Notes under the pieces: generated by a model
The model's input: the letters and a program-made list of their open reading frames with translations, nothing else
The model's database searches: none
What the model was told of the DNA's origin: nothing
In this document: positions 51,617-52,240 of the stretch, one piece after another
How positions within the stretch are numbered: the first letter of the stretch is position 1
How the letters are laid out: the number at the start of each line of letters is the position of its first letter
Position numbers and translations under genes: made by a program
Source of the DNA: a virus
Taxonomy: Duplodnaviria > Heunggongvirae > Uroviricota > Caudoviricetes
Reading direction: 5' to 3' (one strand)
IMG/VR virus record: IMGVR_UViG_3300030250_000013
DNA length: 54,876 nucleotides

Positions 51617-52240
51617 TCACAGATCTCCCATCGCTTTAACCAGTGCGTCGTAGTGTTTGTCAAACGCGGTTAACTGGACGTTCGTTAGTTTGTATTTGGC
51701 TTTAAACAATTCACGCTCAACAAGCGCGTATAACTCCTGATTACTGGCGTCTGACAGGTGAGCAAGCATGAGTTGTTTTTCAGCCAGGTATGTTACAGCA
51801 AACTTCGGATCGTGTCGGACAATTGAAGAGGTGTTATCCAGCAGATCACACAGTTTTATAGTTTTCACCACAGGTTCAGCCCGTGATAAATGGTCGATAT
51901 CCCGTGCTTTACGCTTAACACGGTTGCCGTGGTGTGGACGACTCACATCAGTAAGCTGATCAACATAACGTGCCACAGTCTCACCGAACTGCGAACACAC
52001 ATCACCCACGGTCACGGGCGTATCTTCAACGACGTCATGCAGCCAGGCAGCGGTAACCATATCCGGCGTACCACCATAGCGTTTAACCAGTTCAGCAACG
52101 TTCCGGCAGTGGTTCACATATGGGTCGTTGGTGTACTTACGAAGTTGATCACCGTGTGCTGCTGTTGCGAATTGTTCAGGTGTCATCATAGTTTTTGATA
52201 GTGGTGAAAAACCAAGTTGAAGTTTAGTGCTCATATTCAA
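51617..52240 (-). CDS. HD-domain (p)ppGpp hydrolase, small alarmone hydrolase (SAH)
   Basis: 207 aa; HGDQLRKYTNDPYVNHCRNVA and AAWLHDVVEDT match the RelA/SpoT hydrolase HD signature (HxxxxR...PY..H...VA...LHDvvEDT). Confidence 0.7.
   Translation of the reverse strand: MNMSTKLQLGFSPLSKTMMTPEQFATAAHGDQLRKYTNDPYVNHCRNVAELVKRYGGTPDMVTAAWLHDVVEDTPVTVGDVCSQFGETVARYVDQLTDVSRPHHGNRVKRKARDIDHLSRAEPVVKTIKLCDLLDNTSSIVRHDPKFAVTYLAEKQLMLAHLSDASNQELYALVERELFKAKYKLTNVQLTAFDKHYDALVKAMGDL

Follow-up and report, generated by a model that had tools for sequence, protein, structure and literature searches.

A predicted stand-alone small alarmone hydrolase with a captured N-terminal leader in a 9NA/Sasha-like coliphage genome

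The IMG/VR virus record IMGVR_UViG_3300030250_000013 (Caudoviricetes), analysed here as a single stretch of 54,876 nucleotides (the window), is a 9NA/Sasha-like virulent Escherichia coli siphophage and seems to represent a complete phage genome in circularly permuted form; its replication operon runs off coordinate 1 and resumes at 54876. Near the distal end of this long minus-strand operon lies a gene for a predicted small alarmone hydrolase (SAH), which an earlier note on this DNA had placed at 51617-52240 with a product of 207 residues. The span holds exactly as an open reading frame (ORF) in the list for the window, but the strand is minus and the likely product has 205 residues, unlike what had been implied. 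The 207-residue reading opens at TTG 52240, which overlaps the stop codon of the upstream gene, while ATG 52234, two codons past the TTG, gives 205 residues and a TGA stop. The ATG is likely the better start, because a Shine-Dalgarno sequence (AAGGG) stands 8 nt upstream of it and GenBank entry DAI71357.1 was called identically. Every orthologue begins at an internal methionine equivalent to ATG 52186 of the window and comprises 189 residues. Residue numbers throughout refer to the 205-residue form. The gene and its start are laid out as follows:

51617..52234, minus strand: SAH coding sequence, 205 amino acids (ORF list; start and Shine-Dalgarno sequence read directly; identical to DAI71357.1; HD_4)
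52243..52247, minus strand: Shine-Dalgarno sequence AAGGG, 8 nt 5' of ATG 52234 (read from the sequence)
51617..52186, minus strand: canonical SAH core, 189 amino acids, equal to the whole gene in all orthologues (100% amino acid identity to Bas82_0088)

Profile searches assign this protein to the hydrolase side of the RelA/SpoT homologue (RSH) superfamily. The Pfam family HD_4 (PF13328), the profile that the earlier note had proposed as a check, matched at E=5.1e-15 (56 bits against a gathering score of 27.2), far beyond chance, and PHROG 990 ("metal-dependent phosphohydrolase") matched at 2e-39. The TIGR00691 model for spoT_relA aligned through its N-terminal hydrolase part only (1.5e-20; positions 4-122 of 687, 73 bits against a cutoff of 499). 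HD_4 and HD matches make up the entire domain content of the 205-residue protein, bearing out the expectation that a synthetase domain would be missing from it: the Pfam and TIGR00691 searches of the protein show the hydrolase part only, and no RelA_SpoT synthetase domain was found in the SAH or anywhere among the 40 window ORFs scanned with Pfam. We could thus reject a long bifunctional RSH of the Rel/SpoT type, since no synthetase, TGS or ACT domains follow the hydrolase domain. Among proteins of solved structure, the best sequence matches were Lmo0812, human and fly MESH1, and the hydrolase halves of Rel and SpoT.

The three RelA/SpoT hydrolase motifs first noticed in this ORF (HGDQLRKY, PYVNHCRNVA and AAWLHDVVEDT) are all present in the translation, and all six RSH hydrolase motifs are intact. 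In a conservation alignment of 40 homologous sequences (44-86% identity), R32, H42, H66, D67, E70, D71, D130 and N134 were invariant; these eight residues align to R24, H35, H61, D62, E65, D66, D122 and N126 of MESH1. The catalytic His-Asp pair, whose absence on careful alignment would have counted against a hydrolase, is among them as H66 and D67. A further set of invariant columns defines a clade signature whose RPxxGNRxxR portion recurs in PaSpo, the SAH of Salmonella phage SSU5 (ARPEDGNRIQR), and is missing in MESH1 and Lmo0812. On the sequence, these elements map to:

52109..52141, minus strand: R32-K33-Y34...H42, base/phosphate-binding Arg and first metal-binding His (invariant; MESH1 R24, H35)
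52022..52039, minus strand: H66-D67-V-V-E70-D71, HD metal-binding dyad and ED catalytic motif (invariant; MESH1 H61, D62, E65, D66)
51833..51847, minus strand: D130...N134, last metal ligand and ribose-contacting Asn (invariant; MESH1 D122, N126)
51911..51949, minus strand: clade signature D96-x-S98-R-P-x-x-G103-N104-R105-x-x-R108 (invariant alignment columns)
51620..51682, minus strand: extra C-terminal helix, residues about 185-203 (alignment; confident helix in the model)

An AlphaFold2 model built on the 40-sequence alignment forms one compact domain of 11 helices with a mean predicted local distance difference test (pLDDT) score of 94.9. When this model was compared with the Protein Data Bank (PDB) by Foldseek, all of the top 50 matches were SAHs or RSH hydrolase domains, led by MESH1 with a target-normalised template modelling (TM) score of 0.80 and a root-mean-square deviation of 2.1 Å. 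The extra C-terminal helix is conserved only in 9NA/Sasha-like orthologues (the window protein and three others) and in no other clade member sampled; it might contribute to tRNA recognition or oligomerisation.

Two positions in the putative base-binding pocket bear on the substrate. R32 occupies the place of R43 of TtRel, the guanine-stacking residue (aligned coordinates and PMC10083569), at which the (p)ppApp-specific hydrolase Aph1 has Asp (PMC10083569). Since R32 is retained, the enzyme is not of the Aph1 type and should accept guanosine alarmones such as (p)ppGpp, the guanosine tetra- and pentaphosphates. Y34 stands where TtRel has a guanine-hydrogen-bonding Ser.

The prominence of MESH1 among the structural matches, including its complexes with NADPH and 3'-phosphoadenosine-5'-phosphosulfate (PAPS) (5vxa, 9chy), raises the question of a substrate outside the alarmones. 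The main target could be another 2'- or 3'-phosphorylated nucleotide (NADPH, pGpp, PAPS or a defence signalling nucleotide), as for metazoan MESH1 acting as an NADPH phosphatase, and promiscuity of SAHs is documented (bioRxiv 10.1101/2021.04.30.441581; PMC9765508). We consider such a non-alarmone role improbable: identity to MESH1 is about 28-35%, compared with 50% to an SAH that neutralises toxic small alarmone synthetases (toxSAS), and no genes of NAD(P) metabolism were seen nearby.

The N-terminus of the window protein differs from that of its relatives through a single event. Pairwise DNA alignment showed that the window lacks 194 nt present in phage Bas82 (KarinMuster) of the BASEL collection, a deletion bounded by two AT(C/G)ATG microhomologies that takes out the body of the 81-residue gene Bas82_0087 together with the SAH's own Shine-Dalgarno sequence (GAGG). 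Bas82 retains gene 0087 and a separate SAH start; in the window the two are fused, such that the first 16 codons of the Bas82_0087 homologue (MSTKLQLGFSPLSKTM) now stand in frame with the SAH, and the Bas82_0087 translation opens with the same MSTKLQLGFSPLSKT as the window leader. Mosaic replacement of the upstream gene was rejected as the cause of the divergent N-terminus, as the DNA alignment reveals a simple 194-nt deletion. The resulting features are:

52187..52234, minus strand: 16-codon leader MSTKLQLGFSPLSKTM, from the 5' end of the upstream small gene (Bas82_0087 translation, DNA alignment)
52184..52192, no strand: junction of the 194-nt deletion relative to Bas82 (window/Bas82 DNA alignment)

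The fused allele is real and circulating, because the exact 205-residue protein occurs verbatim in DAI71357.1 and on 11 public contigs from several sources; the fusion was seen in none of the other orthologues examined. Downstream of the leader, Bas82_0088 shares 100% amino acid identity over the 189-residue core and occupies the same position downstream of ParB, and the two genes differ there by 15 synonymous and 0 nonsynonymous changes. Against three divergent Sasha-like orthologues, the ratio of nonsynonymous to synonymous substitution rates (dN/dS) was 0.07-0.09. The SAH is under strong purifying selection. Its intact residues, fold and selection, together with the missing synthetase, identify it as an intact, selected, hydrolase-only orphan.

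This history invites the view that the allele is impaired, a decaying passenger whose expression or activity is lowered by the loss of its own Shine-Dalgarno sequence and by a foreign 16-residue leader, and the restriction of the fusion to this allele among the orthologues examined would fit such a view. We regard it as very improbable. The frame is intact and now lies behind a good Shine-Dalgarno sequence, the core has no nonsynonymous change relative to Bas82, and the spread of the fused form over public contigs points to circulation. The AlphaFold2 model predicts the leader to be disordered (pLDDT about 65) and to precede helix 1, and it is probably harmless.

The protein belongs to a widespread group. 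At least 1,833 homologues were recovered at E<=1e-5, the majority being HD_4 proteins of about 167 residues that stand alone, and translated searches (tblastn) matched 690 phage records at a permissive E<=10 and 287 at E<=1e-5. Among viral structures, 21 BFVD representatives had the same fold at E<=1e-3, and the metagenomic relatives sampled lay in phage-like contexts. Additional orthologues of Bas82_0088 were found in PJ16, AVIO78A, PDP46, 536P12 and BDX09P1. Bacterial relatives occurred in 447 species-representative genomes. The copies in Serratia and Pantoea are chromosomal orphans flanked by EptA-like, OsmC, MarR, SDR and LysR genes, and their location among housekeeping genes rules out a phage-exclusive clade; this is a proteobacterial SAH clade borrowed by phages. 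In many Serratia species the chromosome bears a conserved orphan SAH belonging to this clade (about 46% identity), with an EptA-like phosphoethanolamine transferase and OsmC/MarR on one side and SDR/LysR on the other. Such contexts suggest a housekeeping or stress role for cellular members of the clade.

Public names for orthologues vary among "metal-dependent phosphohydrolase", "polyphosphate hydrolase" and "RelA/SpoT family (p)ppGpp synthetase". Both DAI71357.1 and the annotation of phage PDP46 read "(p)ppGpp synthetase, RelA/SpoT family", although the protein is hydrolase-only; the synthetase name is an annotation error that propagates. The call of a stand-alone small alarmone hydrolase, now backed by profiles, invariant residues, fold and 50% identity to SSU5 PaSpo, is more accurate than the public annotations that say "synthetase", and correction of the wrong name in public records is a secondary benefit of this analysis.

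With PaSpo likeness judged by the pairwise best characterised match, as a proxy for the subfamily hidden Markov models and phylogeny of Jimmy et al. 2020, the closest characterised relative is PaSpo of SSU5 (SSU5_099; 50% identity over 158 residues, 138 bits). Scores against the window SAH were 72 bits for Lmo0812, 62 bits for MESH1 and 31 bits for PbcSpo gp220 of phage PVP-SE1. A second PVP-SE1 product annotated as a "hydrolase", gp162, was rejected as an SAH, having no similarity.

The literature on these relatives frames what the window gene may do. Jimmy et al. 2020 catalogued SAHs in phages and prophages and found that the stand-alone SAHs of PVP-SE1 and SSU5 neutralise 5/5 tested toxSAS (PMC7229694), SSU5 PaSpo acting on CapRel, PhRel, PhRel2, FaRel2 and FaRel (PMC7229694, Table 1); in their proposal, hydrolases of this kind let incoming phages get around abortive infection based on alarmones (PMC7229694). 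SAHs can also strip the pyrophosphate that toxSAS add to the tRNA 3'-CCA end (Kurata et al., bioRxiv 10.1101/2021.04.30.441581), and PaSpo-SSU5 is stated to counter FaRel2 by taking that modification off the tRNA, even when its expression is leaky (PMC11245113). CapRel-SJ46, which restricts coliphages, is a product of E. coli prophages (PMC9712102). Raised (p)ppGpp postpones lysis by T7, and for many coliphages infection is more efficient in (p)ppGpp-null cells (bioRxiv 10.64898/2026.01.27.700999).

On balance, and with moderate confidence, we propose that the gene encodes an active single-domain SAH of the PaSpo-like clade that keeps the infected cell out of an alarmone-imposed arrest, a biological role that we infer from its relatives. 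As in the rest of its family, the enzyme would remove the 3'-pyrophosphate from (p)ppGpp and (p)ppApp in a Mn2+-dependent manner, and pyrophosphorylated tRNA 3'-CCA ends are probably also a substrate, by analogy with SSU5 PaSpo; promiscuity towards all three is expected from the behaviour of SSU5 PaSpo, MESH1 and ATfaRel. The SAH would be transcribed together with the phage replication genes and would serve as an accessory factor in host takeover and counter-defence, the arrest to be averted being either the RelA/SpoT stringent response or one imposed by a toxSAS such as prophage-encoded CapRel. The roles suggested in the earlier note, resetting the stringent response and countering toxSAS, had already been proposed, and partly demonstrated, for phage SAHs (PMC7229694); for this gene they would hold by analogy.

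A more specific version of this proposal is that the gene is a genuine anti-toxSAS enzyme, which in natural infection strips CapRel-type pyrophosphate from tRNA 3'-CCA ends, degrades (p)ppApp and rescues translation. We hold it only tentatively. If true, enzymatic reversal of tRNA pyrophosphorylation by a phage would thereby be demonstrated for the first time in a real infection.

Several observations weigh against the proposed role as a whole. Given Y34, substrate preference is not readable from the sequence. Neutralisation of toxSAS by phage SAHs was seen in plasmid co-expression, not infection. This particular allele is fused at its N-terminus and lacks its own Shine-Dalgarno sequence. Lastly, the housekeeping contexts in Serratia and Pantoea indicate that defence or counter-defence is not an intrinsic function of the clade.

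The surrounding genes place the SAH in a variable part of an otherwise replicative operon. In order of transcription, with the terminator last, the features that define this setting are:

5240-6907, minus strand: helicase, first in transcription order
4692-5198, minus strand: Rv2179c-like exonuclease, next in the operon
1676-4030, minus strand: primase, next in the operon
111-506, minus strand: YAcAr (YspA/cpYpsA-related SLOG) domain protein (PF10686, E=1e-19)
54049..54816, minus strand: ParB-like gene, heading the variable module that holds the SAH (PF17762 HTH_ParB, 2e-6; phrog_1033, 3e-60)
52237..52575, minus strand: upstream gene, homologue of Bas82_0086, 112 amino acids, whose stop overlaps TTG 52240 (PHROG 323 "transcriptional regulator, D5-like", 3.4e-6)
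50626..50646, no strand: bidirectional intrinsic-terminator-like hairpin, ending the minus-strand operon about 1 kb 3' of the SAH (equivalent annotated in Sasha)

The description of the operon as containing a ParB-like protein agrees with the matches listed above. The "GcrA-like" neighbour named alongside it, which is probably the ORF at 52237-52575, did not hold up: this ORF drew no Pfam match, with none to GcrA even at E<=10, and the resemblance is at the level of motifs, with a weak PHROG 323 match only. About a dozen small genes, including the SAH, lie between the ParB-like gene and the terminator. Salmonella phage Sasha has three small genes in this interval and no SAH, while more divergent relatives hold an SAH at the same position amid differing small genes. 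Because Sasha lacks the gene while divergent relatives retain it and its flanks vary, the SAH is an accessory gene in a variable module. A promoter scan yielded no convincing internal promoter, with fewer matches than shuffled sequence, and no phage tRNAs, which we sought as a toxSAS-related feature, were found in the window.

This setting bears on the possibility that the enzyme serves to reset the stringent response and nothing else. Host (p)ppGpp would then be its sole physiological substrate, its hydrolysis would sustain rRNA, tRNA and nucleotide synthesis in nutrient-limited hosts, and the toxSAS neutralisation reported for relatives would be a side effect of overexpression with no natural role. 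Such a function would accord with co-transcription of the SAH with replication genes, with the retained guanine-stacking Arg (PMC10083569), with the housekeeping contexts of the chromosomal orphans in Serratia and Pantoea, and with evidence that (p)ppGpp restricts T7 and other coliphages and that phages evolve its suppression (bioRxiv 10.64898/2026.01.27.700999). However, the closest characterised homologue also reverses (p)ppApp- and tRNA-based toxicity, even at leaky expression (PMC7229694, PMC11245113), and the SAH is accessory rather than core in this phage group, which is more typical of host-specific counter-defence genes. We therefore think a role confined to (p)ppGpp unlikely and return to the broader proposal, in which the SAH would avert alarmone-imposed arrest of either origin.

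Other genes of this region merit brief description. The YAcAr protein (111-506), which shares the SAH's operon and is kept even in Sasha, carries the annotation "GTP-binding domain" in both Bas82 and Sasha; since SLOG domains are predicted to bind nucleotide ligands, the YAcAr protein may be a second nucleotide-directed host-interaction protein. Within the variable module, the ORF at 52493-52981 (minus strand; 162 residues, coiled-coil-like, PHROG 614, function unknown) has 77-80% nucleotide identity to the lambdoid/Stx (Shiga toxin) phages HK629, HK106 and HK75. Relative to Bas82_0085, the ORF differs in its middle segment and reads 33 codons beyond the Bas82 stop, producing an 83-nt overlap with the next gene; these features point to mosaic exchange with temperate phages and a lost stop codon. 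The same module encodes a DUF1382 protein (PF07131, 2e-21; 50887-51093, minus strand) of a family typical of lambdoid phages, which is further evidence that the interval from ParB to the terminator collects exchangeable small genes. Convergent with the SAH operon, the ORF at 49809-50621 (plus strand; 270 residues, no Pfam match) contains a perfect 21-nt tandem repeat (4.6 copies, 50400-50496) encoding (VEAPVAR)n. Its Sasha orthologue, gp81, also has an annotated tandem-repeat region, and the tract is thus a conserved feature, probably variable in length.

If the SAH is active, a virulent coliphage could erase alarmone-type signals, affecting both the stringent response and prophage toxSAS defences such as CapRel. 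The idea and the enzyme class are already in print, and nothing here implies a new mechanism: enzyme class, phage occurrence and the counter-defence hypothesis all appeared in 2020-2024, and the protein core is identical to a deposited protein. What is new here is one detail only, the deletion-fusion by which this allele acquired its captured N-terminal leader. The BASEL paper recognised no supplemental function in the extra genome content of Bas82 (PMC11990801), and the identical core in that phage makes an in-infection test of the 2020 counter-defence hypothesis straightforward.

Among known systems, the Aph1 proteins of MuF-Apk2 prophage modules are likewise phage-borne HD hydrolases that act on 3'-pyrophosphorylated purine nucleotides. 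Their signature comprises Asp at the TtRel R43 position with R119, K133 and Y134 on a compact fold that lacks two helices (PMC10083569). Similarity of the window SAH to Aph1 is marginal (E=4e-3; TMq 0.47 with 7smg), Aph1 lacks two helices and has Asp where the window SAH has R32, and Aph1, unlike the window SAH, is linked to a toxin gene. With R32 invariant at that position and similarity to Aph1 weak, we rejected an Aph1-type (p)ppApp-specific hydrolase. A MuF-Apk2/Aph1 toxin-immunity module was likewise rejected: the SAH is not Aph1-like, and the MuF-family protein of the window, 17 kb off, has no C-terminal toxin domain. The same observations bear on a wider suggestion, that the SAH confers Aph1-like protection of the infected cell against injected (p)ppApp toxins such as Tas1 of the type VI secretion system or MuF-Apk2 of other phages. 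Toxins of this kind are universally countered by immunity proteins of the hydrolase type (PMC12226406, PMC10083569), and a MuF-family head protein is indeed encoded in the window, but that protein ends right after its MuF domain (180-307 of 319 residues), the marginal similarity and the Arg in place of the Aph1 Asp speak for a different enzyme, and a virulent phage would gain little by protecting a cell that is lysed within minutes. Immunity to injected toxins thus seems scarcely credible.

ATfaRel (PbcSpo), the type IV antitoxin of FaRel, and the PVP-SE1 SAH are hydrolase-only RSH proteins that neutralise toxSAS by degrading their product (PMC7229694), but they belong to a different SAH subfamily from the window protein, as the low score of gp220 reflects. 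ATfaRel adjoins its toxin gene, whereas the window SAH has no synthetase partner; a type IV antitoxin paired with a toxSAS was rejected because neither the flanking genes nor the 40 scanned ORFs showed a synthetase domain. The cellular SAHs with solved structures (human and Drosophila MESH1, the Pseudomonas aeruginosa SAH, Corynebacterium glutamicum RelH and Lmo0812) share the all-helical HD fold (TM about 0.7-0.8) and have metal and catalytic residues identical to those of the window SAH. They differ in their lower identity (22-35%), in lacking the GNR insertion and the extra C-terminal helix, and in being cellular rather than viral.

The nearest parallel is SSU5 PaSpo, like the window SAH a stand-alone phage HD_4 hydrolase (residues 9-163 aligned) with the same catalytic residues and the RPxxGNR signature, an orphan with no adjacent synthetase in a phage of an enterobacterial host. 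The two differ in that SSU5 is a temperate plasmid-prophage and the window a virulent 9NA/Sasha-like siphophage, their C-terminal extensions are unrelated, and the captured N-terminal leader is found in the window SAH only. Neutralisation of toxSAS has been shown experimentally for SSU5 PaSpo, whereas the window SAH is described here from its sequence and model; the likeness between them suggests that this coliphage carries a member of the same class of phage-borne alarmone hydrolases.

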